A stretch of 63,957 nt of DNA, counting the filler, from Atractiella rhizophila (taxonomy: Eukaryota), in the NCBI GenBank assembly GCA_021432655.1. It is 12 parts of 9 records of this genome, joined end to end, with 100 filler letters (N's around TTAATTAATTAA, not from the genome) between each part and the next. Parts side by side here need not be neighbours in the genome. Positions count along the whole stretch, not along the records: positions 29,105 to 31,169 come from MU272110.1; 11 more parts are not named here. The stretch is one strand, 5' to 3'. The notes under the pieces were generated by a model that saw only the letters and a list, made by a program, of their open reading frames with translations, made no database searches and was not told where the DNA came from. Below are positions 13,541 to 41,155 of this stretch, one piece after another. A program made the translations under genes and the position numbers. Numbering within the stretch: position 1 is the first letter of the stretch; each line of letters opens with the position of its first letter.

Positions 13541-13544
13541 TGAT

Positions 13545-19333: not shown

Positions 19334-19433
19334 NNNNNNNNNNNNNNNNNNNNNNNNNNNNNNNNNNNNNNNNNNNNTTAATTAATTAANNNNNNNNNNN
19401 NNNNNNNNNNNNNNNNNNNNNNNNNNNNNNNNN

Positions 19434-20059
19434 TTCTCGTCTTTCGGTTTCGCAGGCATGGGAGCGGGAGAGGGATCAAAGAGGAGATTTCCCAAGCCGT
19501 TAGAGATCGTGGCGGCCTCAGCGTTCATCTGCGCATGCAATTGATATCCTTCCTTTCATGCTAGACGTTTGGACAAGTGACGTACCATAAAGGGGTTCGC
19601 AATCGGCTTCTCGTCTTTCTCCTGCTCTTCTTCAGCAGAGGCAGCTGCAAAGCTCTCATTCCATCTCGTCGCTCTCCACGCGCGCACACTCTTTCTTCCA
19701 AAATCTTTCATAAGCTCATTCTCTTCCTTCGCCTCGCTTATAAAAATAAGAAAGAAAGGAAATAAACACACCTTGCCCTTCTTCTGACACTCTTTGTCCT
19801 CGCATCCCCAAACATACAGCACCCGATCAAAGCTGGACTCTGGCAACGGACAATAGATCTGCGTCAACAGCGGCATCTTCTTCTTACACGCCACACAGTC
19901 GGAGCACGAGACGGGAGGGGCAGCCGAGAGGGGGAACACGGGGAAGCCCCCGAGACGGGAGATGGTGTAGTCGCCCAAGTCGGGAGGCGAGGTGATGGGT
20001 CCATCGGCGAATCCGAGGATGGGCGCGGAGTCTTCGCTGTACTCTGATGCGGGTGCCAT
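19434..20059 (-). CDS. TSR4: PDCD2-like 20S rRNA accumulation protein, N-terminal part
   Basis: SRLGGFPVF..C..CKKKMPLLTQIYCPL..FDRVLYVWGC...C...SVRAWR; has introns and is 3' truncated. Confidence 0.82.
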
Positions 20060-20926
20060 GGGCAGCGCTTTATCGTGTCTTAGCAGCCGTCACGAAAGAT
20101 AAAGATAATAACTCGCTTTCGCTTTGCTTTTTCTTTCGATCAGGAAAAATTTGGTTCCTTTCGGCGATACATTGTGCGTATGACCGACACTTGCACTTGC
20201 ACACTCCAGTGAAGACTGAAGACTTTTCAAGTTGTGCTTTGGATAATTAGCGGATGTGCTTTGAACCTTCGCAGCCTCTTACAGTATAAGCTCCAGCTGC
20301 AACAGAGCGGATGACACCGCGAATCGTGTGGAAAGACATTGCCTCAACTTGAAGTGAGAATCTTAGCGTGACATCCTCTTCCGGGAGACGCAGAAAGACG
20401 TCGTTTCTTCATGGAACTGTTTCGTTACTGTGATGAGGAAGAGATGATTGCCAAAGCCCAAATCCAGCGGACCAGTCTTGGCCCTACCCTATAAGGGTAA
20501 TACATTTTTAATGCCTTCGTTCGCCTCCGTGTGACAAGACTTTCTCTCCCTTCCTCCAAAGCATGTAGGGACGCTGTCAAGATCGAGTGTTGATCTAATC
20601 CGCTCTAATCATGCCTCCAATCCCCAAATCACAGGAATTGCACCGTTATTCAGACCAGAGCACCGAAGTATGGAACATTCAACTTCAATTTTGAGCGATG
20701 GTCGATGGTTGGAACATATCTTTTCGTCGCCCGAGTCCCATGATTTAAAGGCCATCGTTCCAATTCATTCCTCTCCTCCCAGGATAGACTGATCCATTCG
20801 CCTCCTCTACTCCCTTTCTCTTTCGTCGTGCATTGCAGCCTTCGCAGACCAGTACTTCTTTCTGTTCCGTAGCAGTCCCTACTCTCGCTTTCATACACTA
20901 TCGTTTATCAAATCGTTGCCGTCAAC

Positions 20927-22280
20927 ATGCCTTCTTCCTTTAATGTCCATTTCTTCGCTATTTCCTTTATCGCAACCCTCTCCTCGGTTGTGAATGGCTA
21001 TATTCCCGTCGGTGGTCCGCCTTGTACAGTCCTTGGAGCCCCTTGCAACTGTCGGTTTCTCACATGCTAGCTCTTCTCCTTCAACAGCTGATGGAGGAAG
21101 TTAGTTCAATATGATTTCGATGGGAGCACTTTCACTGTCGATGCTTTTTGTGGAGGTTCGTTCGATCCTCGCCCTCTTTTTCTGATACTGAACGCATACG
21201 CGTAGGATCTGGAACCGATCTTTTTTGCGCTGGTGCGTGTTAAGATTTGCCCCGAAAAAATGGCACAAACCCCTCTGGCAGATAATGGAGCTCCTTGTGC
21301 TGAGGATGGTGATTGCTACAGTTCGTTTCCTCTCTTTCCTTGTTAAATTTCTTTCACGCTGACGCGTATCGCAGATTCGTGCGTTTCCTATTTGTTCTCC
21401 CATCTACATTATTTTGACGGTTGAGTCCTCCTCAGTTGTGGAACGACGGATGGTGTTTGTGGTGCGTCTTTCCACCTTTTCCTTGACGACTAATTGACCG
21501 GTTCTTGGAATTAGGTGGCGTCGGTAAGGTTGTTAAATCCCATCACGAATTTCTACTGATCTTCGACCTCCTAAGGTGCTGCATGCAACACTCAAGGTTT
21601 GTTGTCCATTCTCCTGTTTCATGATTTCACACCTTCGTAGATCCATTTGAACACGAGCAAGTGGGTACTCCCTCACATCTGAAGGGTGCAACTGAACGGA
21701 AAACAGTTGGAAACCGCCTGCGACACTCCCGGTGCGCCACCTCTCTCTATTTTCTGCTCGCCATTATTGACTCTCTTTCTCCATTGAAAGGTGCCATCTG
21801 TTCCACGGATAGCGGCGTTACAGGCGTCTGTCTCGACGCCGTCTCAGCCGCAGGTCGTAGGACTCGCTCCTTGCGTGAAAGGGACACTCGGTACCAATTG
21901 GCTTTGAACTACTGCAATGGCGGCGGTAAGCAGGTGTGCGAGATCAACGGCAAGTTCGAATGTGTGGATACGTTCAACTCGCTCGAATACTGCGGTGGCT
22001 GTCCCGGTTCAAAGGTGCTCTCGAGGAAAAGAGGACTTATTGGGGAGTGGACCGATTGCATGAATTTAGAAGGCGCTGACGACGTGGCTTGCGTCGCTGG
22101 TGGATGTGTCATCAGTACGCTTTTTCCCTCTTTAGAACTTGATCAAATTCATAAATTTTCCATGGATAGATACTTGTGTTGACGGTTTCATGCTCTTCGA
22201 CAATACTTGTATCCGAATCTAAACATGGTTCGTCCATCCTGCTCACATTAGTTGTACTTCCTGACTTATATGCGGTTTGC
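20927..22280 (+). CDS. Secreted Cys-rich protein with C-terminal CPL1/priA-like domain (many small exons)
   Basis: Signal peptide MPSSFNVHFFAISFIATLSSVVNG; C-terminal FECVDTFNSLEYCGGC...DCMNLEGADDVACVAGGCVI. The 3' end is approximate. Confidence 0.8.
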
Positions 22281-24185
22281 CAGGAGATACCTCATACCAT
22301 GCTAAACGCGACAGTCAGGACAGGTTTCTACATCGTTCGCTCCTTCTTTGCTTCCATTTTCTCTTCCCTTTGATGTTTGATTTATCTCCGTGCCCTTTCC
22401 CCTGCCGTTCTTCTCAAAGGCAATAATATTCAGATAGGATGTACTATCGTAATCGCGTTGGATTAGAATGAATTGTCCTTCAGTAAAAGCTTTCATCTAG
22501 CAGTTCCGACAGATGCTTAGCAAACATACGGGTTATCCACTCTTGTTTAGGCTCACGGCATGTCAAAAAGCGTCCATCGATATGTCCACAATCGCCGTGT
22601 TTTGGCATGTGCTTTGGTTTGTTTCCTTCCCTCTCTGCTCCTCCAGTAGTTCTACTATTCACGTTATCACTATGCATGTTTTGGAATACTGTTTCTAGTG
22701 ATTCAACATTTGGATTATATGATTAATTTGATGAAAACGAAACCCGATCAAAGAAAACTGACATTGGCAGATTATCAATCAGAAGAGTCAGCGTGAAGCT
22801 CTGCAACTCTGACGCAGAAACACGAATTGACCCCTATTAGGAGTTGCGCCTAGTATTGGTCTTCTCCACGCCTTGTCTTCCCAGTATTCGTCAACTCCAT
22901 CAGGGCCTTCTTGAACGGAATTTCTAGAGAACCATGGCGTTGAGACCACTAAAGACGAATCCAAATCGACTGCTTGCATCAATCATCTTTGTTCCCAACT
23001 AAGAAGGAAGACATTGAGAAAAATGTCAATCTTGAAATGGATGGAAATACATACCTGAAAATGAGTGACCTTTCGCCCGTGTCTTGATCTATGCAGAGTC
23101 TTATATTTCTTGAATCAAATCAGGACGTTGGGCCATATGAATGGGGACGATGGGATGAACTCGGTCCTGAGAGGCAGAGTTGGGTCAGGACTGGAGCTGG
23201 AACTGGAACTGTTATCCTGTGACGGGGGGGAGTTAAGAAGAGATCCTGAAGGGGTCAAGTGATTGACTGAGAGACACATTTGTGACTAAAGCCATTCTGT
23301 TTGCAAGTGGTGCCCGAGCTCACTGATATGATGAATTATGAACAGGACACTTGAAGACAGGATACTTGCGACGTTTAAGTATCTGGGTCCCAAATCCTCC
23401 TCGTCGCAGTTTTGAGAAGCTTGAAGGGTATGACTCTCTAAAAACCCTAATCTTTCCTTGGTGAACCGCATGATGCACGTTGATGTTCTTCAAGTTTTCA
23501 GTGCCGAAATGAATTGATTCTAAAATGTGTTTCATGAGAAGCTATGAGCGCTAGAGCACTGACCGCAATTTCAACGTTTATGGTACGGCTTGGTAAGGCT
23601 GCTAATGACTAATCCTTAGGCAGTGTACGCCTCACTGAGAAGTATGGAACGCACTGTCGGATAAGATAAAACTATTTTTTTATCCACTCTAGACCCAAAT
23701 GTTACGACTATGGTCCACTTTTTACCACATTAGCATCGAATAATGTGGGAGCACCCGCAAAAACCGACTGCTTTGATAGGAATATAGGAATACTAGCATC
23801 TGCTATCATTTTTGACCCTAGAAGCCGTAAACCTTCGTCGAAAGCGACTTTCCACCACGGCGCTCCATAGAGAAGGAGTATGAATATTTGTATCAAGAAT
23901 GCTGACGCCGTCCGGACATCGGGCACCATCATGATTGTATTGCGTGCGGTGGTATCCGCCCGTCTTGATAACTTGGTAGATCAATTATGAGTGGTGTTAC
24001 ACGCATCAAACCAGCTTCGTCTCAGAGTGTGATCGGTGAGATAAAGCCTCATCGACCTCATCTTTCCACTTCTACGATTTCATTATCTTTTTTGGAGCGA
24101 GAAATCACGCGATTGCTTCCCGGTCCATTTAGACCGACTGTGTCACTAGGTCAGACTTTCATCATGAGACTGTAGTGATTATCTG

Positions 24186-25598
24186 TTGAAGCTAGAGACA
24201 GTTCGACCTCCCCAAACCTGTGTAATTGCCCGACTGCCAAATGAGCTACTTTTCCAGATATTTTACCTTTCCTCACCTCATGTCTCCAGCGTCAAGGATC
24301 TAAATCAAGAATTTATTGCATATTTTTGCATTTTTCGACAGATATGCTTTGCGTTCAGCAAAATCGCACTCTATGCCCTTCGAGAATACAGCAGTCGTTT
24401 TGCTGACCTCTTTCCATCCTATGCTCTGAACGTCACTTACCTCCGGAACATGGCAGTGAAATATTGGTTTATGCAATGGAAGAAGGACGAGTGGTTGAAT
24501 TTAGGTCTTCCCCTTCCACCATCCAGGAGGTCTTGGTCCGATTTACTGCGAGCCATTGAGAGTCATCCTGGCCGTACTAAGGTGCAAATCCACAATCTTC
24601 CATGGAGCGATGTTGACCTGAAGCATATGTTGGAATCTACTCCTTCTTACAAGCTTGGATCTTTGAAACTTTTCTTTAGAAAACGGCAAGCTGAGCTATC
24701 TCTGCAGGAAATACTCCATGTCCTAATGCGTAAAGTTGAATGCAACACCATAACTGGCTTGATTCCTTCGCCAGCACAGCATTTCTCAAGGGCTCAAAAG
24801 TCTCTTGTGCCTAGCGAGAGCCTCGCCTTGCTTCGGTGTTGCCTTTGTGACGATGACCTCTATCGCTTCAGATCAGGACAACTGCTGTCAAATTTCAGAT
24901 ATGTCAAGACATTGAGGTTTAGCTCATTTCATCACCTGGTTTCGCCTGATGGCTTTCTTCACATTTTGAGAACCTTCGATCCCCTTCACCTTTGTTGTGC
25001 TTTTCAGGAGTTCTTGGATAAAGACGGCAACAACGTGTCTCACCTGCGAAGACATTTCGACCTTGAATTGCTTGACACGCTCTCCAATCGATTCAAAGGT
25101 ACGCTTTACCTTGACGGGGGAAGAGAGAATTCGAATCTTATCTCTGATCAATTCCTGAGGGCCAAAGCGCAATGGCACAACTTGTCAGAGCTTGTTTTAC
25201 TTTACTGCGACTTTCCAGCCAGCTCAATCTGCCAGTTCCTACATACATCCACACAGGGCAACTGGCTAAATAAATGCTTGATCGTGCAGCTGAAGTCATT
25301 CTTTGGAGACTGTGACTTTTCTATGTCATGGTTCTGCAAAGCCCTCGGGACGTTCGAAACGTCGCTGGAAATATCTTCCATCGAATCGTTCAACCAGAGG
25401 TATGGAAAGACTTCCAGGTATCGGCTTCAGTATGATCCTTCTAGATCAGGCGCAGTATTCAACATTACCTGCAGGCGGAGCGGGTGGAATGGTTTCTTGG
25501 TCGACCTTTGGATCATTGACCAAGACGATGCCCCGGGAAATGAGGACTCTCTCTTCTTTTGGGAGAATTTCGAAGCCAATAACATCGGGAAGCATTAA
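24186..25598 (+). CDS. F-box-like / LRR-like hypothetical protein, single long exon
   Basis: 470-codon ORF with IARLPNELLFQIF near the N-terminus and LxxLxL-like repeats. The true start codon is uncertain. Confidence 0.65.
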   Translation: MKLETVRPPQTCVIARLPNELLFQIFYLSSPHVSSVKDLNQEFIAYFCIFRQICFAFSKIALYALREYSSRFADLFPSYALNVTYLRNMAVKYWFMQWKKDEWLNLGLPLPPSRRSWSDLLRAIESHPGRTKVQIHNLPWSDVDLKHMLESTPSYKLGSLKLFFRKRQAELSLQEILHVLMRKVECNTITGLIPSPAQHFSRAQKSLVPSESLALLRCCLCDDDLYRFRSGQLLSNFRYVKTLRFSSFHHLVSPDGFLHILRTFDPLHLCCAFQEFLDKDGNNVSHLRRHFDLELLDTLSNRFKGTLYLDGGRENSNLISDQFLRAKAQWHNLSELVLLYCDFPASSICQFLHTSTQGNWLNKCLIVQLKSFFGDCDFSMSWFCKALGTFETSLEISSIESFNQRYGKTSRYRLQYDPSRSGAVFNITCRRSGWNGFLVDLWIIDQDDAPGNEDSLFFWENFEANNIGKH

Positions 25599-26792
25599 AT
25601 TTGCTTCCCATTGTCGAAATATCTCATGCCATGGAATAACGACGCGGGATGATCGACTTATAACTACCATTTTTAGTTCATTCGCTTAGTCTGGAGTAAA
25701 TAGATGAGCACTGTACTTCATGAGCACAAATGCGTTGAAAACCGCTGAAGTTCATGTTGAGAGACACTCATGCATGGTAAACAACCAATTCAATGCTCAG
25801 AACGTTCCCCAGACTGGGAAGCAGTGAGGATCTTCCAGGGAGTGAGAAACTGATTTCTTACCGCCTTGCACTAAGGGTCCCCAATCACTTATCAGTGAGT
25901 GCAAGCGATACAAATAATGTTATGTGATTGGGGAAAAGAAAGAGAAGGAAAACACATCAAGCCATACTTATAAGTCCGGGTTAGCGGTGAAGTGCACATG
26001 TTTGGTACGGCATCCGGAACGCGAGGCAAACGAACCAAACAGATGACATCCGATCTCCAACACAGGGCGATTTCGACCTTCTTTATGCGTAGATTTCTCG
26101 TAGAAACGTCTAAGTAGCTAGCGCTCTTTAACAAATGTTTACGGAGGGTCGCTACAGTGCCACTGAGGAAGCAGTAAAGAAGGGGAGTCAAGGGTAAGAT
26201 CGACGAACATCAACTTGCTTAACTGGAAAGAGACAAGCAGGAGACCAGTAGATGGAGAGGAAAGGTAATGATTGAAGTGTAAATGTCATAGGTGGATTTC
26301 ATTGCTAGCTAGCTATTGTGATCAGTAACATTGCAGCCTTTGGTATGTTGAACTGAACACAGCTATGAACGACATCATTGTTTATAACGGCCAAATCCCG
26401 ATACCTCTCCAAGTGCCGTCCAGTTAGTTAGCCAGAAATGGACCATCTCTTCCTCGTCAGTCAATGACCACGTCGAAACATTGGCTTTCAGCTTTGCAAC
26501 GGCCTGAGTCTTGTTTTCAAAATTCGTGTATCGGCTCCCAAATGAGAAGAGAACATGTTCTTTCTGCCCTTCACAATGAATACTCTTCCGCCAAACTTGA
26601 GGATTGTGGGCCAGTAAACAACTTTGGTACAGATTTCTCTGAGAGGAACTCGAAAGCACGCGCCGAATTATATCCAGAATGAGAGATTCTCGTTACTCCA
26701 TATGGCCATATCATATCCAAGCTAATACATATCAAATCACACATAATGCTCAGCTCACATCACATCTCCGCCCTGAAGTGTCCCACCATCAA

Positions 26793-28125
26793 TCACATCG
26801 CCTCACCCTCCACCTCTTCTCTCAAAGACGATCCATGCTTCTCTCCCCACACCCTCGCAGCCGGGCTCCTATATTCCCACTCGTTCAAACCCAAACCCAA
26901 GAACTCCGCCGCTCGCTGGCTTTTCGGCGTCATCATCACTCCGTTCATGCTTGGGGGTTGATACGCATGCTGTTGTTGTACAGGGTGAGGGGGAGAAGAC
27001 GTGCGGAAGTGTTGGAGGGCGGTCGTGGTTGAATAGACGATGAGGCCAGCCATGAGCAGAATAAAGACCTAATCCAGCACGTTCCTCCCTTCAAAAATGT
27101 CGTCACAGCCAATAAGAACATACAAAGCTTTTCCACGACACTGTGTCCACGAACCCATTCACTGTCTCACCCACAACCATCGCCAACAATCTCGCTGTCC
27201 CCACCGCTTCCGGATCCTGGTGCATGCACCTTTCCCAAACTCTACAAGCGTCCTCAAGCGCAGGGACTCTCGTTTCGGGGCTACAACGGTTGAGAGTGTA
27301 AGATTGGGAGCAAGCGAAGATTTCAGAACGTTGTGCGAGGGTGGAGGAGGATAATCGGGCTGAGAGGTCGGAGCGGAGGGTGCGAAGGAGGAGGAAGAGG
27401 AGGTAAAGGACAAGAGTGAAGGTGGTGAGGAGGAAGGTGGCGTGGAGGTAGGTGGAGAGATGGGCCGGTGCGAAGGAGGATGAATTGCTCGCGTGTGGGT
27501 GGGGTTGGTATGGGTGTGGATAGGGAGAATGGTGGTTGTGGATCGTAAGATAATTTTGTTGTTTGCGCGGTCCACCAAACTGCACCGGTTGCCTCCAATG
27601 ACGATGCATCAGATAAGAAAGGAACACGACGCACCACGTAAGGCTGGGTCTCACCACCTGCCTTTGCCTTCTTCTTCTGTCTCTTTCTCACGACTGCATT
27701 CGACGCGATCGCTCTCTCAGCAACTCCGTCGTTCTCCTCTTCTTTCTCCTTCCCATTTTCCTTTTCGGCGAGTGAAGTAGTAGGACCTGCAGATTGCATC
27801 GACACGTCTGCTATCTCGTCCTCTTGCGCGACAGCCTGAGATTGGGATTCGTGAGACCCAAACGAAAACGTCAGCGTCCAATCCATCGCCTCTTCCTCCA
27901 AGTGCGGTCCTACAATGTGCATCGTTACAGCCATACTGTAAAAAGAGAAAAGAGCGTACGCTTCAAGGGCCTCTCTTCTACACGACTCCCTGCCTGCTGC
28001 TGAGAATATGCCAAAAAGGGATTGTTGCCAAGACGCAAGTTGGGGAACTCGAACTTGACGTCGTCCATGGGCGCTTCGGCGGAGCGAGAAGAGCGTTTTG
28101 GAGGGGGAGAGAAGGGCAGGCTCAT
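26793..28125 (-). CDS. BRR6: Brr6/Brl1-family nuclear envelope protein
   Basis: Two TM segments flank a four-Cys luminal domain, EIFACSQSYTLNRCSPETRVPALEDACRVWERCM..DP; spliced. Confidence 0.85.
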
Positions 28126-28313
28126 GGTCTCTGCTGGCAGAAAAGTAATAACAAATAACAAACAGGGAATATTGGCTGGTAGATGTTGGTGGTAGAAGTT
28201 GAACTTGCTGAGGAGAGTTGATGATGGCCTTCGTGGCTTTAAATTTTCAACAACCACTCCATCTTTCCCTGTTAGTACTGCCATAGTCCCACTTCCCACC
28301 CAGCAGCAGCACC

Positions 28314-29004
28314 ATGTCATTCTTCCGCACAGTCAGCGACTCCGAAAGCGAGACAGAGTCCGAGGAAGAACTTCTCTACGACTCCGATGGCCAAGAGCGC
28401 GAGCTGAAGTTCGTCAAGGGGGGCGGATCAGATGAGGAGTCAGAGGAGGAGTCAGAGGAAGAGGAGGAGTCAGACGAGGAAGAGGAAGGGGAGAAGGATG
28501 CCGATAAGCCTCTGAGGTCGAGGAAGTTCTTAGCTGGCGCAAGCGACAGCGAGGACGATGAGAGCGAAGACGAGAGGAAGAGGACGGTCAAGTCTGCGAA
28601 GGATAAGAGGACGGAGGAGATGGAGGGAAGGGTGAAAGGGATACAGAATGCGATCAATATCAATGACTGGACAGTAGTTTCTGATGGTTCGTCCGCATAT
28701 TCTATCATTTGGATTGTGCTCATTTTCATGGACTGGCTCGTTGTTTGCGATGGTAGAATTCGACAAACTCACTCGTCTTGTCACCAAACAAACCACGCTC
28801 TCCATCGTTGCCATCCCTTCAATCTACCTTCAACTCCTCCTTGACTTGGACACCTCCATATCCGAAGCAGGCTCGGCAGCCAACAAGAAGAAGATGAACG
28901 CCACGAACGCCAGAGGGCTCAATACCATGAAACAAAAGGTCAAGAAGGCACAGAAAGAACACGAAGCTGTCCTCCTTGTTTACAAACAGGTTCATAGTTC
29001 CTTA
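28314..29004 (+). CDS. NIP1: Translation initiation factor eIF3 subunit c, N-terminal part
   Basis: MSFF plus an acidic tract, VKSAKDKR, AININDW...|EFDKL and KKKMNATNARGLNTMKQKVKK. Confidence 0.93.
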
Positions 29005-29104
29005 NNNNNNNNNNNNNNNNNNNNNNNNNNNNNNNNNNNNNNNNNNNNTTAATTAATTAANNNNNNNNNNNNNNNNNNNNNNNNNNNNNNNNNNNNNNNN
29101 NNNN

Positions 29105-30161
29105 AGACAGACTCTCAAAACGCACCCATCTCATCCCCACCCATTCGACGATGGATGCAGAAGGCCTTGCAAGACTTTTTCGCGATCATGTATGGAAGTT
29201 ACATGGACTTTTCGATGTCGCAATTTTCGATCGAGGCAAAGAATTCGTGTCCAAATTCACAACTGCACTTTTTCGCATATTAGGTATCAAAGGTTCACCA
29301 TCGACAGCCTATCACCCGCAGACTGATGGTCAGACTGAACGTATGAACCAAGAAGTTGAACAATATTTGCGCATTTTCTGCAACCACCTTCAGGACAATT
29401 GGGCAGAAGGACTCCCCAACGCAGAATTTGCGCTCAACAATCGCGTCAGTTCGGCGACGGGTGTAACTCCATTTTCGCTCGACTGTGGTCAACATCCCCG
29501 CATGGCTTTTGAACCCATCTCCGACGAGGACGTTCCCGCGGCGGCGCATTTCGTCGAACAGATGCAAATCGCCGACCGGGAAGCACAAGCGGCACTTGAG
29601 CAAGCAGCAGATCTCATGGCAAAACATTATGACAGAAAACGCGCACCGGCGCCCGAATATCATGTCGGCGATTTCGTCTGGTTGAGCGCGAAAAACATCA
29701 AATCGACGAGACCTGTCAAAAAGTTGGACGACAAATGGCATGGCCCTTTTCGCATTTTGCAAGTTTTGGGTCCCCTCAACCTTAAACTCGAGTTGCCATC
29801 CTCATGGAAGATACATCCAGTGTTCCACGTCGGCCTAATACGAAAAGTCAACGAAGACGACATCCCTGGCAGAGTTCAGCTGCCCAAACCACCTCCAGAA
29901 TTGGTGAATGGAATTAAAGAATGGGAAGTAGAAAAAATTGTTGATGGGAAATGGTTCGGTACCCGAAATAGAGTTTTCAAATATCGCGTTCGATACAAAG
30001 GGTATTCACCATCTGAAGACGAGTGGATCAACATCACAGATCTAGAAAATTCCCAGGATGCTATAAAAGACTATCACACTGCACACCCTCTCGCAGTTCG
30101 TCCCGATTCCATACCGAACTCCGCAACAAATCGCCCAAATGCGCGTTTTCGTAACCTTTGA
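29105..30161 (+). mobile_element. Ty3/Gypsy chromovirus pol C-terminus (integrase core, GPF motif, chromodomain)
   Basis: LHGL...DRG..F, STAYHPQTDGQTERMNQ, KLDDKWHGPF, IHPVFHV and EWEVEKIVD..Y.VRYKGYSPSEDEW; the frame is uninterrupted. Confidence 0.96.
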
Positions 30162-30183
30162 CGAAAACGGGCTGAAGGGTCTT

Positions 30184-30312
30184 CCTCACTTTAAGGGGCC
30201 CAACACCCCTATATGCCTTGCCGGGTGAAATCCTAGTCTTTGATACGTAGGTCAAGGCAAGGCGCCGACTTGTTCCTCAACGGACAAGTCGGCGACTTGG
30301 TCGTTAGTGAGT
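30184..30312 (+). ncRNA. Candidate structured RNA module, copy 1
   Basis: Multi-stem fold with compensatory changes relative to copy 2 (see findings). Confidence 0.6.
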
Positions 30313-30410
30313 CCATTCGTCGCCCGTCAAAGACGAATGCTCATTGCGTTCTCGCACCATCGCCAATGTCGCATTTATGAAAATTGTCCTCAATCGCGAG
30401 GTCCCCTCCC

Positions 30411-30543
30411 CCTCACTTTAAGAGGACCTACTCCTCTACACGCCTCGCTGGGTGAATCCCTAGTCACATTGTTGAACATAGGTCTAGGCGAGGCGCCGGT
30501 CTGTTCCTCAACGGACAGATCGGCGACCGGTTTGTCGGTGAGT
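30411..30543 (+). ncRNA. Candidate structured RNA module, copy 2
   Basis: Same fold as copy 1; G-U wobble pairs favour the + strand. Confidence 0.6.
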
Positions 30544-31296
30544 TACTCGCCCCATTTTCACAAACGGTTGCTTACTGCACCAAAAAGAATACCGGCCAAA
30601 CTTCAAAAATCCCTCAATTGCGAGGTACACAACGGCTTCCCCCTCATCCTACACTCTGTTCTGGTTTTGATGATTATTGTCTCCTATTTTTGCTTTTACC
30701 TTTGCTTCCCCATGCTTGATTGCTCGACAACACATTCTTCCACAAAGAAGGCAGACCGGCGACGAGCACACAAATCGCCGACCCGTTATACTGCGCGTTG
30801 TGTCCACGAGCGCGTGGCCCAGGCCTGTTTGGTTGCGAGCTCCAAAATAAGCTTGGGTAGCTAGTGGGAGGAACGCCTGAGAGTCCTCCCCTAGACAGGG
30901 GAGTGTGAGTCCTGCATCACCCTCTTCGCCATTGTTCTCCCCACTCACTACAATCCTTTTTGCCACTACGACAAATTTACATCTGTCGCCGCCCGGCAAT
31001 TCGCCGCTAATACGGAGACGCAAAACTTTCAGAGATCAAAATCACCACTCTGGACTGACTCCTCACTATCGCTGCTGCTTGAAGAAGAAACGGAATATGC
31101 ATCATAATTGGAATTATCATAGGCCTCCTGGGCCAACGAAGGGTTTAAGTCGCCCTGTCGAAACTCAATNNNNNNNNNNNNNNNNNNNNNNNNNNNNNNN
31201 NNNNNNNNNNNNNTTAATTAATTAANNNNNNNNNNNNNNNNNNNNNNNNNNNNNNNNNNNNNNNNNNNNTACACTAGTCAGAAATTTGGGGGGTGT

Positions 31297-31786
31297 TGTC
31301 AGGCTTGCCCCTACGCATTACCGAAATGTACCATTCGGAGTCACGTGACCTACTTCAGTACATCGTAGGATCAAGTGCCTACACGTCGCCGCTTTGCGCA
31401 CGTTCGCGCTGACCGCCGCCTTCTCCCATCTCACTCGAATCGCCGCTCAGCAAACCTTATACATTTCGCCGGTCTGCACCGTCGCCATTATTGCCATGTT
31501 ATCTTTTCTCACTTGTACTGCTCAGTATATCTTATTTCCGAGTATTCCCTTTATTGCTTTCCTGATCTAGCTATCTTACATGTTTCAAGAAACTTATGTT
31601 ACAGTTTATGGCAGTGCCTTGGCATATGTATATATACATCGAGACGTAGTGGTGGTGACCTCAGAGTATTCTCTTAGCTTTACCTCCACTACAGGTTAGT
31701 CTTCTCATGCTATACGATTCACTTAGGTTTACCTCCACTACAGACGCATCGTCTATCGGCGACCGCACATAGTGTCAGCCCTAACA
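31297..31786 (+). repeat. 3' LTR (Gypsy-type) preceded by a G-rich PPT
   Basis: GGGGGG tract at 31288-31293, imperfect inverted ends TGTCAGGCT...AGCCCTAACA, and TATATATA at ~31629. Confidence 0.8.
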
Positions 31787-32479
31787 ATCGCCTAAAGAGC
31801 TTGATATCCTCCCTCACCTTGTGGGGAGATGTAAGAGCCCATCATGAGGATTTGAACCCTCAGAGGTAGCAACCTCTGCCTTGCAAGTCAATCTGCCTGA
31901 CTGAGGAGAAAGATCCTCATGATGGGAGCTTGCTGAGCGGCTGGCAACCACCTACACGGTTACGTCCCGACAAACCAAGATAGGAAAGGGAGCCGTCCTC
32001 ATGCAGCTGGATCTCAGAGGCAAATCCATCACACAGAAGCTGATGGCTCGAAGGTAGCAACCTCTGCCTCACAAGTCAATCTACCGCTCGAGTTGTGAGC
32101 AGAGTCTGATGGAAAGCCCCCATATGCTCGTCAGCACCTCCTCTGCGTGGTTACGTCTTGACAAACCAAGATATGACAAAGGCAGACGAGTATGAAAAGA
32201 GTATCCTGACCCCAAAGAAGACTTTGAGGATCAAGACGCCCTTGTGGTGCTCAAAACTGTGAAGACATGATACGACCCACATCGATGCAAACCTCAAGCT
32301 CATAATCAATCCCTTGAACTTTGATGCAAGACTAGACATGTACACATGAAAGGCGGCCGTCAGAACACTTCTGAGACGTTATGAGGCGGCCCTCGCCCCA
32401 AAGAAAAGTCGAAGGAATCAATAGAACTCAGCCTCTCATGGTGCAATGACAATACTGAGATGAATCGAATGAATCATAT

Positions 32480-34153
32480 TTATTTCTTAGCCTCCAACTC
32501 TATGAACTGACCCCAAGGTACCTTGTGGGGCAATACTGAGTGCCTTTTGCAAAGGTCAATAGCCTCCTTCTCCAGATCATGATCTGCAGAATCATCATAC
32601 TGCCATCCCTCCTTCTCCCTCCTCCTGATGATCGCTCGGAACTGTCTAGGCGATAAACGACAGTATATCTCTCTATAAACATGGATTAGGCGAAAAATAT
32701 GAAAGGAAATAGGATAGAGAATGAACCTATTGGGACCACAGCAGTCAAGAAAAAGTTCTTGGACCGTGCCCACACCATGGGATCGCCATAAGTGGTCCTA
32801 AGACTGCCCCTGGTGCCTTGACGCTGATACCAGGCCACATGATAGGGTTCATAGCGCCTCCTACATCCAAAAATGAGTAAAAAATGGCGCTAATGTGAGA
32901 CAGGAATCGAGAGAAACTCACCTCTTCTCCCCTGGATGAAGCAGAACGGGGAACTGTCCATCCATAAAGCGCACTGCAGAATTGACGATATATGAATTCA
33001 TGAGGGTGGAGAATTCATCACTGATGGGATCATAAGAGAGAACCAAGGGGATGTTCTCATTCTCTCCCATGACCCAACGATTCACTGTGATGAAACCACA
33101 AAGATCAGAAAAAAGATAGGAAGGTACACAAGCAAAGAACATACCTGCTCTTGGAAAAACATTGTGACAGAGATCATTGCCATTGAAACCGATCTTAAAA
33201 GCTTCCAAGCCATAACAATCCATGAGATCTAAAAGGATAACCAGTACTTAACAGAAGAAAGGTGTAAAGATTTGAAAAGAACACCCACCTTTCATTGATA
33301 CCTTTCCCATGACCAGAGGATCCAAAGAAATAGAGTATTTCTCCCTAACAGCATCAAACAAGGTATGAAGGGACGTCACATTGCTTCCAGACATGATGGA
33401 AAGTCTGCAGATTGATGGAGAAAGGCCACACAGAGCCAGAGCAGTTTATATACCCTTCTCCCCCTGCCATATGGGGGCCATCGTTTATGCAGCTTAGTAA
33501 AAGCTCCTCACAGCCTTTCAGGCTGAATTTGCGGCCACAAATCAACGCAGTGGAGCAGTGTGTACGCCCCACAAAGCAGGAGCTCCACCTATTAGCCTAA
33601 TGATCAATTAAAACCATCGCACCATCCACTCAAAGACCAGGAGCCCCGCTGATGAAATGATGCAAAAAATAGGGAACCCACAGCACTGTACCATCGAAAA
33701 TGGGCGGAATAGACGGCCTCAGGACTCTCCATGACGCTTACAAATGCAGGAGCTCCACCTGTTAGCCTAATGATCAATTAAAACCATCGCACCATCCACT
33801 CAAAGACCAGGAGCCCCGCTGATAAAATGATGCAAAAAATAGTGATCTCACAGCACTTTGCCATCGAAAAGGAATGGAATAGACGCCTCAGGACTCTCCA
33901 TGACCGCCCTGAATCATCCAGAGCATCCCCATTTAGCACAAGAAGCATATGATGCATTGCCGCTTCATCTTGAGGAACAGGGAAACGCAGGAGAGACAGC
34001 CCATAGAGGGGGTGTCAGGACCCTTTGAGCGACCAAAAAGGCGCCACAAAGACCACATTCCACCCTATTTCCTTCCACATAAGGACTCAACACTGCAATG
34101 AATAAAGAAAACACAAGAAAGAACCTCAGCCTACGCTGAAGCGCAGATAACAA
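32480..34153 (-). CDS. Hypothetical multi-exon gene or pseudogene, no recognisable family
   Basis: A chain of minus-strand ORFs separated by GT..AG intron-like segments. Confidence 0.35.
33576..33904. repeat. Tandem duplication with ~170-bp period
   Basis: 33576-33735 and 33746-33904 are near-identical. Confidence 0.9.
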
Positions 34154-35028
34154 CTCTGCATGATGCGATGGGCAATCCCCATCAATTCCTTCACTTATAA
34201 ACCACCCAGAGCGCCTCCCAAAGAGCCCTCACCATCACCAGAACTGAAAAAGCCTTAGCGAAACAGGATCTAGCCAGTCTTGTCTTCTGGTGAAACCCCT
34301 CATCTCACACCCCACTATCGCTCCTCCTCCTCTTGCTCCTAGTTATTTACTATTGGAAGTGAACATATCAAGAAGGGAGAAGCTACACTGTGAGTGTTTC
34401 GTCTTTGGTTCGCTTTGGAGTCCAATTTTGTTGGACTCTGATGGTTCTGCCCTCTCCTGTTGATGTTGGTCCCACCTTCATCCCTAACCCATGCGTTGCG
34501 GGGAAGTACGTAATTTGGTTGTGTTGCAGTGATATGGGCCATTTGTCTCGCACGTGTCCGTAAGGTTGTCACGTGATAATATGTACGGATGGGACGGGGT
34601 ACGTCACATGTTAGACGTAATAAGTTGGAGTCTCAGCTCACTGAACTGTGTGAGAGCATGAGCTCTCTCATCCACTCGGTCCCCTTGGATTCTACACTTA
34701 GTGTTAGGGTCATGTTCTGGTTCCACAGCGATTTGACCACCATCCGCTGTTGGACTAGGTCCAGCGCACAAACTGTTCTGCCTATATCATGTCATACTGA
34801 TAACAAGGAATGAATCGGAGCAAACGACAGTAACCACTTTCCCATCCACTATTGATTATTGCATTCAAGTACATCAGATCACATGTTCTCGTTGCTCTTC
34901 CAGAAAAGGAAGGTCGTGCACGCGCTCGAAAACTTTTGTTGTCGATTCTCGATCTTTCAACGAATTATTACGAATCCTGAGAAATTACTGTTAGAATTAC
35001 TGCAGCCCACACTCAACGATCTACCTTT

Positions 35029-36668
35029 ATGGCGCTCCAAACCAGACTCCCACAGGTCATCAATGCCGCTCTCTCCCCTTTCACAAGTGCAGAACAGAAG
35101 CAAGAGGCGTATGCTTTCCTGGAGCAAGTGAAACTAGCAAGCGCAGCCGAATCCACTTGGAAGGAATGCCTAGCTTTGTTCACGCAGGGAGGAGAAGGGG
35201 TTGGGCCGGAGTGCAGGTTGTACGCTCTCCAGGTTGTGGATGAAGCTTTGGGCAATCGGTGCGCGTTTCTTCAAACCGTCAAGACGTGATCGGTTGGCTT
35301 GTTCTCTTTCCCTGTCTTCGAATTGCTATTCAGCACTTTCACGATTATTTTAAATTACGGATCGACCATTTTCTGGTGCATGAGACCTGTGTGTATCAAG
35401 CTCCATCTGCTGCCCGCCACCTCTTGACATAACAGTAGTTCGTTAAGGTGGCGGCGTTGTTCTTTGTACGAGATGAATGGTTGACCTCACTGTCTCCTAA
35501 GATATAACAAAAGTCTATTGCTCTGGGTCATCTACAGCTCTTTGATTTCATATTGAGGGTCAAATCTACCTGAAACTGCTCTTTGTGCACTGAAGCGATC
35601 CCCAGGCTATTCACTGCCTCTTATCTCTCTCAATAGGATCGATTTGTTGTGTGGACAAAGTACTCTGAGACTGACTTCGACCTGTGCGTTCATTTTAGGT
35701 TCGCAGAAGTAGCAAATCAGCAGAATTTGGTCGAGACGGTCCGTCAAGAGCTATTATTATACCTGTCTCGTGTTTACATCGAAGGCAACAGAGAGGAAAC
35801 CAATTGTTTGGCATTCCTTCAATTGCGGCGCCTTTCTCTTACTTGAGCGAACAGACATTAAAAACAAACTTGCACAAACTCTCTTCTACCTCTTCATGAG
35901 AACCTACACTACCACTTTCCCCGATTTTTTCACCGTTTTCATCGCGCAAATTCGCTCCTCTTCAAACTCTGCTCCCTCTACACCTCACGCCAGAGGAGGA
36001 CAGTCTCTGAATCCTCGTCTCATCGACCTGCTCTTACGCATATTGCACGAAATAGCAATGGAACTCTCGGATGCCATTCTTCGAGGAAACAAATCCCAAG
36101 AACGCCTGGCGATAGATGCCGCTTTGAGAGACAATGTGAGGGCAAAAGACGCACCACTCATCGCGAAAACCCTATGGGAAATCGTGACGGAATATTTGAC
36201 TCGAATTTCGATTGCCCGCAATGCGAAAGCTGAGGAAATGTTGGAGATGGTGGTCCGTGTAGTTGCGGATTACGTTCGTACGGCCGCAATTCCCAATAAT
36301 CCCTTTAGCTAATGCGTTTGGGGAAACAGCTTGGATTGATATCAACCTCATGGTCACGCCAACCACGGTGCCACTAATTCACAACTGCATTTACCCCTCC
36401 TTCGCCACCTCCACGCATCCTTATTATCCCATTCGAACTGCAGCAGCAGATGCCCTGATTGAAACGGTTTCAAAAGGGATGCCTTCCGGCGACAAAGTAG
36501 AACTAATCAACGCGCTCCAACTCCCCGAGCTGCTCAATTCTTTAGTCACGATAGGGAGGGAAAATGGTGCATCTGAAGGGGAAGAGTCTCTGGAAGTCTT
36601 TCGAGAGAAGCTTGCGAAACTACTCAGTAGCATAGGAAACCAGCTATTCCTCATTTTTGACGACTCAA
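35029..36668 (+). CDS. LOS1: Exportin-T (tRNA exportin), N-terminal part
   Basis: KQEAYAFLEQVK, CRLYALQVVD, IKNKLAQTL..F...Y...FPDFF, WIDINL and ALIETVSKGM...K. Confidence 0.88.
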
Positions 36669-36768
36669 NNNNNNNNNNNNNNNNNNNNNNNNNNNNNNNN
36701 NNNNNNNNNNNNTTAATTAATTAANNNNNNNNNNNNNNNNNNNNNNNNNNNNNNNNNNNNNNNNNNNN

Positions 36769-37629
36769 AGACTACAAGCGAAGAATAGGAAGCGAGATTT
36801 GGATCGACTGTCGTCCAGCCGCACCACGGCATGAGAGGATCTCAAGAGCAAATGAAATGCCGGTTTACATCAAAACCCTCACCTCTCAGACGTTTACAAT
36901 ACGTATTTGCAGTTGGGAAACCATAATGGATCTCAAACTCAAGATACGTGACGTACATGGCATCCCCCCAGATCAGCAACGACTCATCTTCGCCGGAAAG
37001 CAACTGGAAGAGGAAAGAACGCTTTCAGGTAGGTGCTGGATCAGAGTATCCTAAATTGCTAACAGTAGTAAAGACTACAACATTCAAAAGGAGTCGACCA
37101 TCAGTCTTGTCCTTCGTCTGAGAGGTGGATGGGCACCACAGCCACCAATGGGGTTTGGAGTAGGGGGCCAGATCAAGCAGAATATTTACGAAGACAGAAA
37201 CAATCCCCGTGTCTATGACCAAGTGTCGTACGACCGCGTTTGGATTCATACAGTCTCTCCTGCTCAATGGAAGGTCTCGTTTCACTCTGCTTCCCAATTG
37301 CATAGTGTTGATAAAACGTTTTTCAGAGCATCACTGGATTGGACCCTCCTCCGTGTCCTGTTACACAAACCGTATACCAAGAGAAAAACATCCCATGGTT
37401 CGATATCTACGACGACGCCCCTACTCTCGCCCCTCCGTACCCCGACGTCCAGCTTATCAAACCTGTGAGTATGGTAGAAGATTGGAACGAAGAACGACAA
37501 ACGATTGAGGAGTTTGCCATCAAGAATGGAGATGTCATCACTTATCACCTCGCTGAGGATAGAGTTGGAGGACTTGTCAGAGCGTCATCCTCGAAGGGGG
37601 CAGAAGCGGATGATATTTGGAGTTTCTAG
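36769..37629 (+). CDS. Protein with an internal ubiquitin domain followed by a conserved C-terminal domain (probably 5' truncated)
   Basis: YIKTLT...[42 protein letters not shown], then [23 protein letters not shown]....PWFDIYDD. Confidence 0.85.
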
Positions 37630-38623
37630 TAGCTTTTCCGACCAGGGGTTGACACATGCCGCTACTAACCTGTTGATCAAATTTTCAGACTCAAGTTCAT
37701 CTCAAACTGCAAATCCTTCTCCCCCCCCCGATAGTCAGACAAAGCTAGAACCTGGTTCATTTATTCAGCGCGGGTTCCGAACCAACATTTTGACAATTCC
37801 GTGATCTATTTGTTTCGATTTTTGGTAGAAGATTCCAATAAGTAGCCGAAAGTTTAGCGGGCGACCAGTCTACCGAATAGCACTCGTCGTATTATCATAG
37901 AGAGCACTTTGGGTGAATATTGAGAACGAGCCCTGGTTTCGTCCTGGAAACTTCTAAGCCCTCCTATTTGTGAACGGAAGATGCGCTAATCGATATTTAC
38001 GCTCTCGTTATGGCTCCAGTACTCAACAGGTGATTATCACACAACTGACCATGCAACAAAGCTTGTAAGTTTATGTCGCGATAATTCTGCTTTGCTCATC
38101 TCCTGCCGAATGGCTCATCCCTGAAACTGTGGCCTGATCTCAGGCTCTGAGCTGCAAAGTCTTCTTCAGGGCCGAAAATCAAAGGAAGAACTTCGGCCAG
38201 AACAGAAAGATTTCGATCAGGATGCGGGAGCAGAGAGAGGACACGCCTCAGAAAGTGTGTATTGGTCTGTATCTGGCGAAGGCGATAGATTTAGACGTCC
38301 TGAAACTACGCAGTGGCAATAGGGTCATACAACGGGAAGATTCTTGTCGGCTCATGATGAGACTGTTCGAGAAAACCATTTTGAATGGTGGCTTGACAAA
38401 GCGTCGAGATTTGTCAACAGGCAGGCTCCAGTAAAGCTTTAGCAGTATGGCAACTCGGTTTGCAACGGTCTCACTTTCCTGCATCACCGAATAGAAGCTT
38501 GAGAGGTAGTTTTGCACAGGAGCAATTCGGACTGCAACGACGGCGGCCATATAAGGCAAGATGCCATGCTACAGAAGTCCTAACATCTCAACACTCACAC
38601 CCAATATCTCTTAACACGTGGAA

Positions 38624-39828
38624 ATGACTGGTAGAATTAGCTTGGTCACAGGAACATCTGGCGGATTGGGCGTAAGTGCGCTTGAACCTCTGAGACTATT
38701 CGCTGACCTGTTGGCTCATCACAGCTTGAGTTTGTCAGTCAGCTATCGAGAAATCCGGATGATCTTGTTATTGCGCTCTCGCGAAACCCATTTTCGTCTC
38801 CGAAACTACAAGCCATTGCGTCCGAACGCAAGAATGTTGTGCTCGTGAAAGGGGATACAACGGATGATAGCAGCATGAGGGTCGCCGTCGAGGAGGTTGA
38901 GAAGAACATTGCAGGGAAGGGTCTCGATCTTCTCATTGCTAAGTACTTCTTTCCATTTCCTTCCTTCGACTTGAGTTGAAGCAATTCCTTTAGTGCAGGA
39001 GCAGCGTCTCCTAGCACTACTCAGAGAGGTGCCTATGAAATGGCCGTGGAACCTTTCTCCACTGCGCCTCTGGGAGATTTCATCAAGTTGGTACGCTTGC
39101 CAATTTTGCAGTGTGTTAGGAAGTTCAAGGGGGGGGGAACAGTTCGAAGTCAATGTGGTGGGAAGCATCAGAACCGTCAATTCTTTCCTACCTTTGGTTA
39201 AGAAGGGCAACGAGAAGAAAATAATCCTAATTTCGACTACGCTTGCCTCCTGCACATACGTAGACGTTAATAATCACATGGATAATTCGATTGGCAGTTT
39301 TGGCCCTTATTCTGGTACGTTTTGTTTGCCATCCATTGATTTACATTGGGATCAGACACTCACACTCATGATCACAGTTTCGAAAGCCGGTTCGTCCCCT
39401 TCTTTCTTTTTCGAACGAGCATGTCCTCAATACCCGAAGTAGCCCTTAACATGGCTGCCAGAAAGTACGCGGTCGAGCTGAACAAAGATGGAATCACTGT
39501 TTTAAACGTTGCCCCTGTAAATCATTTCTCAGTAATCGAATCATGTGACTGACCATTTGCGTTTGTCGTAGGGCTGGATAAAAACAAATCTGTGAGTCTC
39601 TCTTCCTAATAAACGCTTGACAGGATTCAAATTTCCCCCCTTCCGTTACAGGTCTGGAGCAGACATTGTACGCCATGGATTTATTTTACGATCTAGTTGA
39701 CGGTTTTACAGGCCCCTCTTGAACCCGGCCCTGCTATCGAAAAGGTCATTAAAAAGATTGATACAATTTCATTGAACGACTCGGGCAAGTTTATCGATGC
39801 CTCAGAAGAGAAGGTCGTTCCTTTCTAG
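38624..39828 (+). CDS. Short-chain dehydrogenase/reductase (C-factor-like)
   Basis: LVTGTSGGLG, LDLLIAN|AG, FEVNVVG, PYS|VSKA|ALNM (YxxxK) and P|GWIKT. Confidence 0.9.
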
Positions 39829-41155
39829 GAGAGATAAATGGGTTCTTGCCACTTTGTACGTAGGCACGAATACTACAATGCATTTGATAAAGAGACGACA
39901 TTTTGAGTACTTTGCTTTCATCTGCATCATCGTATATTTTCTTCACAAATCTCTCTCTTTCAAAGATTCCATCCATTTCCCACTCCACATTGTCAACCAC
40001 ATCCCTCTCGCTCTTCCCATGCCAACCCAACTTCCTCAACCTCGTAGCTCTACCCCTACTGTTCCCACCAAATTGAATAATAAGGTACCTATTCCCTCCA
40101 AACACGTCACTCCCGAAGCTCTTTGCCCTCCCTTCCTCTACTTTCCCCCTCGTTTGCAGCGCCATCCCGATTGCCTCCGCAATATCCCTCCATCTGTGTT
40201 CTCCAGTTTCGGCGAAATAGTAAAGGGAAGAGAGGTCGGGAGTGGATGAGACAAGGTTGGTGAGAATCAGCAGGTAACCGTCGACGAGGGCCTGGATCGA
40301 AATGTTGTCTGTTTCGAACCTCCTTCAGCCGCCCTTGGGACGCAATAAAGGGCTAACTTACTCCAGTAGGCTTCTCCTTTCCCCCAATAGCCGGAGTATC
40401 CTTCCTTAACCTGAGTACTACAATGAAGCCACCGTGTTCCGACAATAAATGAGGACGCACCGCCAGTTCAGTGAGAATGGGAATCTGAATGCTACGCTGA
40501 TTGAACGGTCCCTCCCCCTTTCCATAGATGAGGGGAGGAAGAACGATCTGGATCCTCGCGCCACTTCCGCCCTTCTTCTCGTCGACGAACCGTTTGATCT
40601 CCAAGTCGATCTCTCGATGTATGTTCTCCGTTGTCAACCTCTCATCCATTGCTGAAGGCACAGAATCGTCGTGGATGTAAGTAGATTCCTCTCCGTTGTC
40701 CATGTTGCAGAGCACACCAGTGCCGCTCGTGTGGATGTAGACGACTGGTTTGGATAGGTCGGAGCGGGAGGCGATGCCTGAGAGAATGGCTGGGGCGGAA
40801 GGGAGGTCGTCCGCGGTGGCTGTATGGATTATCTGCCGCAGAACAAATGTCAGCGGGTCCTTTTCGATTCATAATTCCGGAGGTTGTTCCTGTCCAAGAC
40901 CAAGAGAGAGCGAGATGGGTTCAAAGGGAAGGGACGTACGACATCGCTCTTAATTGTCTGTTCCTTGATCACATCGAAATCTGCCAACGACCCTTTAATC
41001 GGTGTTACACCCAACCCCTTCAAGACAGTGGCTTGCTCGTCCCTTCTAGTCAGGGCGAAAAAGTCAAATTTCTCTCTATGCGTTTCGAGGAGGCGGGTGA
41101 GAAGGGTGCCACCGATGAAACCTGTGCCAATTAGGAAAAGTGATTGTTTTGGCAT
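39791..41155 (-). CDS. NAD-dependent epimerase/dehydratase-like (extended SDR) protein
   Basis: LIGTGFIGGTLL, IIHTATADD, YIHTSGTG, PPLIYGKGEG and NSRGRATRLRKLGW. The 3' end is uncertain. Confidence 0.88.

Follow-up and report, generated by a model that had tools for sequence, protein, structure and literature searches.

The 3' end of a Ty3/gypsy chromovirus pol gene from Atractiella rhizophila (GenBank assembly GCA_021432655.1) is followed by two tandem modules of about 130 nt, at 30184-30312 and 30411-30543, which on structural modelling are an uncatalogued structured RNA motif in a retrotransposon 3' untranslated region (UTR). Base pairing within the modules is preserved beyond neutral divergence, and the fold has probably been under selection. 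By analogy with known retroelement RNAs, we see an even chance that the modules are paralogous copies of a selected multi-hairpin RNA that would serve as a cis-acting 3'-UTR element for export, stability or packaging. The window, by which we mean the whole stretch of 63,957 nucleotides analysed, consists of 12 contigs (1.0-9.7 kb) joined by N44-TTAATTAATTAA-N44 linkers at 9659-9758, 19334-19433, 29005-29104, 31170-31269 and seven more joins. Features are not readable across these joins, and both modules are located on one 2,065-bp contig (29105-31169).

The modules share a multi-hairpin fold

The modules form parts of about 2.1 head-to-tail units, each of 227-231 nt and made up of a module and a spacer, that align at 80% identity across 251 columns; a third unit begins at about 30638 and then breaks off. 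Tandem Repeats Finder reported no tandem repeats, because there are only about 2.1 copies at 80% identity. A first-pass annotation of this DNA had given the coordinates of both copies correctly, and the loop and junction motifs that it listed as shared each occur once per module: TTTAAG (30190/30417), GGGTGAA (30223/30450), CCTAGTC (30232/30459), TAGGTC (30248/30479) and TTCCTCAACGGACA (30273/30504).

The RNAalifold consensus of the two modules contains 40 pairs, distributed over a closing stem P1 (6 bp), P2 (5 bp), P3 (8 bp, with inner helices of 2 and 4 bp), P4 (12 bp) and a weak P5 (3 bp). None of these 40 pairs is broken in either module: four have changed on both sides and still pair, and four have changed on one side, in every case to or from G-U. 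At least four double compensations had been noted, and the pair table holds exactly four, G-C/A-U in P2, U-A/C-G in P3, and C-G/U-A together with U-A/C-G in P4. Differences affect 12 of the 80 paired columns (15%), all of them transitions, and 21 of the 53 ungapped unpaired columns (40%); the sole indel, of 4 nt, falls in the apical loop of P3. P2, P3 and P4 recur in every fold, long-range folds and centroids included, and all double changes fall there. As structural models these three hairpins have solid support. The invariant sequences that they carry are UUUAAG, GGGUGAA in the internal loop of P3, and CUCAAC, the loop of P4, together with the pairs that close it. A sliding fold scan of the contig finds the modules to be its most structured windows (z down to -5.2), and gives z values of -2.3 to +1.1 on the plus strand for windows wholly within the pol frame.

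Strand signs point to RNA. The paired columns contain six G-U cells and no A-C cells, which bears out the earlier statement that G-U pairs favour the sense strand, and module 2 folds with z -4.0 on the plus strand versus -2.0 on the minus strand. Because of these signs and the orientation of pol, the data moderately favour a structured RNA read on the sense strand.

The closing stem behaves differently from the hairpins. P1 (CUCACU/RGUGAG) is present in both modules and invariant except for a change of U-A to U-G; it had been cited alongside the compensating stems, but it contains no double change and so has no compensatory support. In an alternative helix, P1', eight base pairs form between the GUGAGU segment and the spacer. 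P1' is possible in both units, and in the list of helices common to both it shows four one-sided changes, all still paired. Constrained folding yields -65.6 kcal/mol for P1 and -65.6 kcal/mol for P1' in unit 1, and -61.6 versus -60.1 kcal/mol in unit 2. In these models the closed four-way junction has an equally good alternative, and GUGAGU is paired either way, because P1 and P1' both engage it.

Two tertiary elements had been suggested for the modules. The GACCUA/UAGGUC pseudoknot is rejected: GACCTA is found only in module 2 (30425), the partner is missing in module 1, and on the plus strand CCUA and UAGG pair locally within P3. For GGG-UGAAN-YCC, likened to a T-loop, a hairpin is indeed possible, but it excludes the CCUA/UAGG helix of P3, and two sequences cannot choose between the two. 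A further candidate pseudoknot of 6 bp, between UCACUU of the 5' strand and GGGUGA of the P3 internal loop, can be drawn in both modules; it is invariant and so provides no covariation.

Pairing exceeds neutral expectation

We compared the modules with simulated pairs of sequences. When the structure was re-derived for each simulated pair, which frees the test from structure-fitting bias, simulated consensus energies had means of -26.1 to -30.2 and a minimum of -46.0, versus -56.2 observed. In each of four settings, two of them with 20-fold CpG hypermutability, none of the 400 simulated pairs attained the observed value. The modules differ by 33 substitutions and an indel, and in six CpG-weighted settings, with a bias of up to 50-fold, none of the 4000 simulations per setting left every pair intact.

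A further test starts from a single module. The structure derived from module 1 only (42 pairs), when imposed on module 2, has four double changes, five one-sided changes that keep pairing and five broken pairs, in apical P3 and in P5. Randomly mutated copies break a mean of 11.5 pairs (2000 simulations), and five or fewer broken pairs occur with P = 0.0035. Mutated copies that fold as well as module 2 make up 0.1% of 2000 simulations (P = 0.001). In the 40-pair consensus of both modules, sliding the 3' partners by 1-3 columns reduces pairing from 100% to 27-43% and leaves no double changes.

The array travels with a high-copy chromovirus

The first 1,056 bases of the contig are an open frame, and its translation (P0001) matches the Pfam families rve, SH3_Tf2-1 and Chromo. 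Its integrase-core end, Tf2-type SH3 domain and chromodomain identify the carrier as the 3' end of a Ty3/gypsy chromovirus pol, with the integrase followed by a C-terminal chromodomain as is characteristic of chromoviruses. The closest proteins in a collection of 5.8 billion are metagenomic, at 54% identity. The nearest named relatives are Tf2-like proteins of the Agaricomycetes Lyophyllum shimeji and Amanita inopinata (about 50% identity), for which reason we call the element fungal-type. A blastn comparison of the contig with all 12 contigs of the window returned its self-match only.

Parts of the stretch are contained in 13 public runs from twelve studies, each with less than half of the sampled words and none on record as RNA. 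We aligned Logan contigs (DNA) of four runs to the whole contig at a likeness of at least 80%. In run X1, 1275 contigs aligned, with summed depths, a poor measure of copy number, of 18,000-43,000 over pol, 20,000-40,000 over the modules and 4,000-19,000 beyond 30553. From the number of contigs and these depths, the element is a high-copy repeat in X1. The modules travel with pol, and the sequence past module 2 is more diverged among copies. Near-identical module pieces are also present in two rhizosphere metagenomes and in run X5, whose kind is not recorded, with 16 differences over 30156-30535 in X3, 5 over 30358-30544 in X4 and 3 over 30410-30544 in X5.

These copies revise the position of the pol stop. 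Position 30159 is C in all X1 depth (14384.2 of 14384.2, 21 contigs) and in the single X3 contig, so the TGA at 30159-30161 is private to the copy in the window. The frame of the other copies runs 11 codons further, to a TAA inside TTTAAG of module 1. Placing the modules just downstream of the pol stop, as the first-pass annotation did, is thus true for this copy, but in the others module 1 starts in the last pol codons. There, the 5' strand of P1 in module 1 belongs to the coding sequence and P2 directly adjoins the stop codon; in module 2 the same CCTCACTTTAAG recurs but has no coding role.

Three majority variants of the other copies fall on helices. The change 30199 C>T adds a sixth pair (U-A) to P2 of module 1, 30306 A>G turns the closing pair of module 1 into U-G as in module 2, and 30426 A>T costs P2 of module 2 its sixth pair. 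The variant table comprises the best-supported differences only, with 103 further differences outside it, and is unusable as a covariation test. One X1 contig skips 213 nt, module 1 included.

With the start of the 3' long terminal repeat (LTR) put at 30893-30905 (Table 1), the repeat array would occupy an internal 3' UTR of about 700 nt. From the pol stop, where it begins, the array extends to about 250 nt short of the putative polypurine tract (PPT), which lies about 350 nt downstream of module 2.

Table 1. Features of the module-bearing contig, in window coordinates.
Feature	Position	Strand	Basis and remarks
3' end of chromovirus pol open reading frame (ORF)	29106..30161	+	Translation P0001; integrase core end, Tf2-type SH3 domain, chromodomain; TGA 30159-30161 closes this copy
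Gap between private TGA (30159-30161) and TAA of other copies (30192-30194)	30159..30194	+	X1 and X3 contigs and frame reading
Module 1	30184..30312	+	-55.6 kcal/mol, z -5.3, 0 of 200 shuffles as good; covariance-model score 156.5 bits
Module 1 helices	P1 30185-90/30306-11; P2 30194-98/30206-10; P3 30215-22/30256-63, inner pairs 30227-28/30252-53 and 30232-35/30248-51; P4 30264-75/30282-93 (loop CUCAAC); weak P5 30294-96/30303-05	+	Consensus structure
Alternative helix P1', unit 1	30305..30346 (30305-12 with 30339-46)	+	Encloses spacer hairpin 30314-21/30332-39
Small conserved spacer hairpin CCUC-AAUCGC-GAGG	30388..30401; unit-2 counterpart 30612-30625	+	Unit alignment and folds
Module 2	30411..30543	+	-56.5 kcal/mol, z -4.0, 0 of 200 shuffles as good; covariance-model score 161.8 bits
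Module 2 helices	P1 30412-17/30537-42; P2 30421-25/30433-37; P3 30442-49/30487-94 with 30459-62/30479-82; P4 30495-506/30513-24; P5 30525-27/30534-36	+	
Alternative helix P1', unit 2	30536..30577 (30536-43 with 30570-77)	+	
Truncated third-unit start (CCCCCTCA...)	30638..30660	+	Unit alignment; CCTCA at 30642
Putative PPT and 3' LTR start, AGACAGGGGAG then TG	30893..30905	+	Sole window with at least 10 of 11 purines then TG in 30160-31169

The word CCTCA recurs through the array, with seven occurrences on the plus strand of 30184-30646 (30184, 30275, 30388, 30411, 30506, 30612 and 30642). Each full unit holds it in three structural settings, a P1 strand, the P4 loop and the stem of the spacer hairpin, and the seventh copy stands at the opening of the truncated third unit. 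The complementary word, TGAGG, is absent from 30184-30646. Judged from sequence, CCTCA could be a repeated protein-binding word.

Known families, coding potential and homologues

A search of the whole window with Rfam 15 (4227 models) gave no matches at gathering thresholds, and at E up to 10 the region 30100-31169 matched snoR16 alone (E 9.8), outside the modules. This was the check that had been proposed for novelty, and the modules come through it as matching no Rfam family. The judgement, made by eye, that they are not hammerhead, hairpin, twister, pistol or hepatitis delta virus ribozymes also agrees with the absence of a model match at E up to 10. ARAGORN found no tRNA or tRNA-like genes in 29105-31169.

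A 206-codon open frame (30244-30861, plus strand) crosses spacer 1, module 2 and beyond. We rejected it as protein-coding, as it has no Pfam match and no coding signature: same-frame differences between units are spread 5/5/5 over the codon positions, with 1 synonymous versus 9 non-synonymous codons, and 4 of the ten majority variants from other copies are synonymous in this frame. It is probably an accident helped by the repeat.

We built a covariance model (R1) from the two modules, which it scores at 156-162 bits; across the window it matched these two alone. Sequence patterns taken from the modules retrieved chance matches from three collections: in JGI metagenome contigs the internal-loop pattern hit one bacterial locus between two ordinary genes, in IMG/VR a 16-mer of the P4 loop hit 21 loci and a 16-position internal-loop pattern 57 loci, and in GTDB genome contigs a 22-position P4 pattern hit 8 bacterial loci. 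On all of these loci the covariance model scored below 19 bits or gave no match. The covariance model, the building of which had been recommended, recovers both modules but identified no homologue beyond the element family among the loci from the scanned collections, which are poor in fungal DNA. Among the titles and abstracts listed by our literature searches, none reports that a fungal chromovirus has a conserved RNA structure downstream of pol.

Three other observations came from these scans and from the rest of the window. On the minus strand at 5500-5700 of the window, GGGTGTAATCCTAGCC occurs inside a tandem repeat (about 96 nt) and by chance resembles the internal-loop motif of the modules; the GGGTGTAATCCTAGCC matches at 5584 and 5680 were rejected as module relatives, being part of this otherwise unrelated repeat. 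The contig next to the module-bearing one holds two direct 143-nt copies (33573-33715 and 33743-33885) of 92% identity, 170 nt apart. An IMG/VR chromovirus-like contig (L023, 43% integrase identity) has low-complexity stretches on either side of the integrase match, A-rich upstream (267-336) and T-rich downstream (2539-2614), with nothing module-like.

Function and rival explanations

If the modules are a selected cis-acting element, the array would be read on the sense strand within full-length element RNA, and a protein of the host or of the element would bind its conserved loops. The bound protein would promote nuclear export, stability or packaging of the unspliced RNA, and the duplication would double the binding sites.

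Several points weigh against such an element. A role in export, stability or packaging would be linked to the modules solely by their position and by analogy. The 3' boundary is putative as well, since AGACAGGGGAG (30893-30903) followed by TG was taken as PPT and LTR start from a single PPT-like run. Covariation comes from two paralogous sequences on one contig, because no homologue outside the element was retrieved. The three chromoviruses found in IMG/VR as relatives of P0001 (41-43% identity) carry neither a module nor a comparable repeat, and the JGI, IMG/VR and GTDB scans contained no homologue outside the element family; these collections are poor in fungal DNA, so the negative does not speak for absence. 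P1 lacks any double change and has no thermodynamic advantage, and module 1 folds equally well on the minus strand.

The double changes themselves also count less than their number suggests. The one in P3 is a change of CG to TG/CA on both arms, explicable by methylated-CpG decay without selection, the two in P4 are adjacent and possibly a single event, and under strong CpG bias at least four retained double changes appear in up to 23% of simulations. Because double changes are common under CpG bias and unbroken pairing is rare, preserved pairing, not the count of double changes, is the sound statistic. In a column-preserving shuffle, 29 of 500 replicates attain the observed value; this test is weak with two rows, because it conditions on change at both sides.

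These mutational effects are the core of a neutral explanation, which we consider rather unlikely. In it, reverse transcription gave rise to a tandem duplication in the hypervariable stretch that separates pol from the 3' LTR, similar to those of plant Tat/Ogre elements. The inverted repeats would have no function as RNA; they would happen to survive, or mutational mechanisms (CpG decay affecting both strands, hairpin-templated template switching) would restore their symmetry. According to excerpts of one study (PMC7004042), LTR retrotransposons commonly carry tandem repeats in their 3' UTRs, which are ascribed to replication errors. Unit number seems variable here too, one X1 contig skipping 213 nt with module 1, and the CpG-type change, the adjacent pair of changes and the shuffle result all fit. 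A neutral history would, however, have to produce 33 substitutions and an indel without breaking a pair, an outcome never reached in any of the six simulated settings, and a consensus energy that no simulated pair attained in any of four. It would also have to account for one-sided changes that are all G-U on the sense strand and never A-C, which templated repair would not predict, and for loops that are either invariant or freely varying, like those of functional RNAs. Replication-born repeats explain the origin of the duplication, not the preserved fold.

The two equally good states of P1 and P1' allow another, unlikely, interpretation: each unit may be a bistable RNA device of a kind undescribed for LTR retrotransposons, a tandem junction fold, starting at the pol stop, that would alternate between a closed and an open form. 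In the closed form CUCACU/RGUGAG would shut the junction. In the open form GUGAGU would pair with the spacer, and UCACUU would make a pseudoknot with GGGUGA of the internal loop. Both forms would conceal a perfect 5'-splice-site hexamer, and terminating ribosomes, which have to unwind P1 and P2 of module 1, could bring about the change of state. If so, pol translation would be coupled to the fate of the RNA, whether exonuclease resistance, splicing or back-splicing, or release for packaging.

It is improbable that each module blocks a 5'-3' exonuclease such as Xrn1 to yield a stable 3' sub-genomic RNA, with the tandem copy as back-up, in the manner of exoribonuclease-resistant RNAs (xrRNAs). 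The arrangement is suggestive, with tandem structured units that begin right at the coding end, a multi-helix junction, and the possible UCACUU/GGGUGA pseudoknot invariant in both modules. Rfam includes xrRNA models, however, and the modules match none at E up to 10. The candidate pseudoknot never varies and hence shows no covariation, and the literature search yielded one review and no retrotransposon case; we know of no retrotransposon precedent for an exoribonuclease-stalling RNA.

Splice signals offer a further reading, one we hold to be quite improbable. GGUGAGU at the 3' end of each module would act as a 5' splice site, CUCAC-UUUAAG would supply both the branch point and the 3' splice site, and 30307-30422 would be an intron; the helices would mask or regulate these sites, or juxtapose them for back-splicing of a module into a circle. 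GTGAGT stands at 30307 and 30538 and CTCACTTTAAG at both module starts, position 30306 is G in other copies, which gives G/GTGAGT in both modules, and the pairing of GUGAGU in both alternative states fits masking. On the other hand, any 6-bp partner of GUGAGU resembles a branch point or U1 through complementarity. The fungal branch-point consensus is CTRAY, which CUCAC, CUCAU and CUUAC do not fit. None of the seven reported joints lies at 30306/30423, in contigs that are DNA and unable to reveal splicing, and an intron in the 3' UTR would tend to provoke decay.

Function at the DNA level is very unlikely. Retroviral U3 enhancers typically hold tandem direct repeats, the LTR boundary here rests on inference, and module 1 folds equally on both strands, so the repeats might be duplicated enhancer or promoter modules, or protein-binding palindromes, in U3 of the 3' LTR. 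But the pol frame of other copies enters module 1, and the sole PPT-like run followed by TG comes about 350 nt after module 2. The summed depth of module bins, a poor measure, is about that of pol bins and not twofold. G-U without A-C pairs indicate RNA, and stems of 8-13 bp with loops are atypical of factor sites. A new class of self-cleaving ribozyme, to which a compact multi-helix junction with invariant junction nucleotides, in tandem within a retroelement, might point, is hardly credible, given that no known family in Rfam matched, that cutting the 3' UTR of genomic RNA would strip away 3' LTR sequences required for reverse transcription, and that the sequence bears no sign of a cleavage site.

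Cis-acting RNA structures that steer unspliced retroelement RNA have been studied in depth in a handful of vertebrate retroviruses and, of late, in a single plant Copia element. The literature searched describes no 3'-UTR structure for fungal-type chromoviruses, and Rfam has none that matches. If the fold is functional, the array would offer a compact, duplicated and delimited handle on the export, stabilisation or packaging of element RNA, a covariance model with which to follow the element family through soil and rhizosphere data, and a natural pair of diverged neighbouring folds handy for mutational and probing work. If it is a mere replication by-product, 3'-UTR tandem repeats extend beyond plant Tat/Ogre elements.

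Comparison with known systems

The array can be set beside five kinds of known element. In plant Tat/Ogre elements, tandem repeats in the 3' UTR are common and thought to be replication-born (PMC7004042, in excerpt). The modules resemble them as a short head-to-tail array (about 2.1 units) downstream of gag-pol and within a Ty3/gypsy element, with an apparently variable number of units. Unlike the modules, which keep a common fold, the plant arrays are described in these excerpts as hypervariable and as sources of satellites, with no claim of a conserved fold.

The Evade LTR retrotransposon (Copia93) carries a nuclear-expression element (ENE) in its 3' UTR that increases RNA stability and mobility (PMC12501189). 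The Evade ENE and the modules are alike as structured parts of an LTR-retrotransposon 3' UTR. To clamp poly(A), an ENE requires a U-rich internal loop, whereas the longest U run in the modules is 3 and no ENE family matches them.

Flavivirus xrRNAs are likewise tandem duplicated junction folds just after the polyprotein stop, and the possible pairing between the 5' strand and the internal loop of the modules is similar. In contrast to xrRNAs, the modules match no model, are twice as large and have a pseudoknot without covariation.

Retroviruses provide the remaining comparisons. In Rous sarcoma virus (RSV), the stability element (RSE) is a CU-rich element right after a stop codon that shields the long 3' UTR from nonsense-mediated decay (PMC9143442, in excerpt). 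The modules, too, directly follow a stop codon before a long 3' UTR and hold several CU-rich motifs, the CCUCA of 30184-30646 being repeated 7 times. As the excerpts describe it, the RSE differs in following gag, in acting through PTBP1 and in not being a tandem duplicate. We found no homology between it and the modules. To our knowledge, a fungal PTBP1 counterpart is not established.

The nearest parallels are the two direct repeats (DRs) of RSV, which have hairpin structure and roles in export and packaging, the single DR of avian leukosis virus (ALV), just upstream of the LTR, and the constitutive transport element (CTE) of Mason-Pfizer monkey virus (MPMV) (PMC9143442, in excerpt). Unlike these elements of vertebrate retroviruses, the modules belong to a fungal-type retrotransposon, lie adjacent to each other and not separated by a gene, and form a multi-hairpin junction instead of one long hairpin. 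They also differ in having no Rfam match at E up to 10, dr1 being an Rfam family. The likeness lies in position and form. The RSV and ALV DRs and the MPMV CTE, as the same excerpts present them, are structured cis-acting RNAs of about 100-150 nt placed after the last ORF and upstream of the 3' LTR, as are the modules if the LTR start is correctly inferred, and the RSV DR shares with them its two copies and hairpins that display conserved loops. The DRs and the CTE act in the cytoplasmic accumulation and packaging of unspliced RNA, and by analogy the modules may do so for the RNA of their chromovirus.

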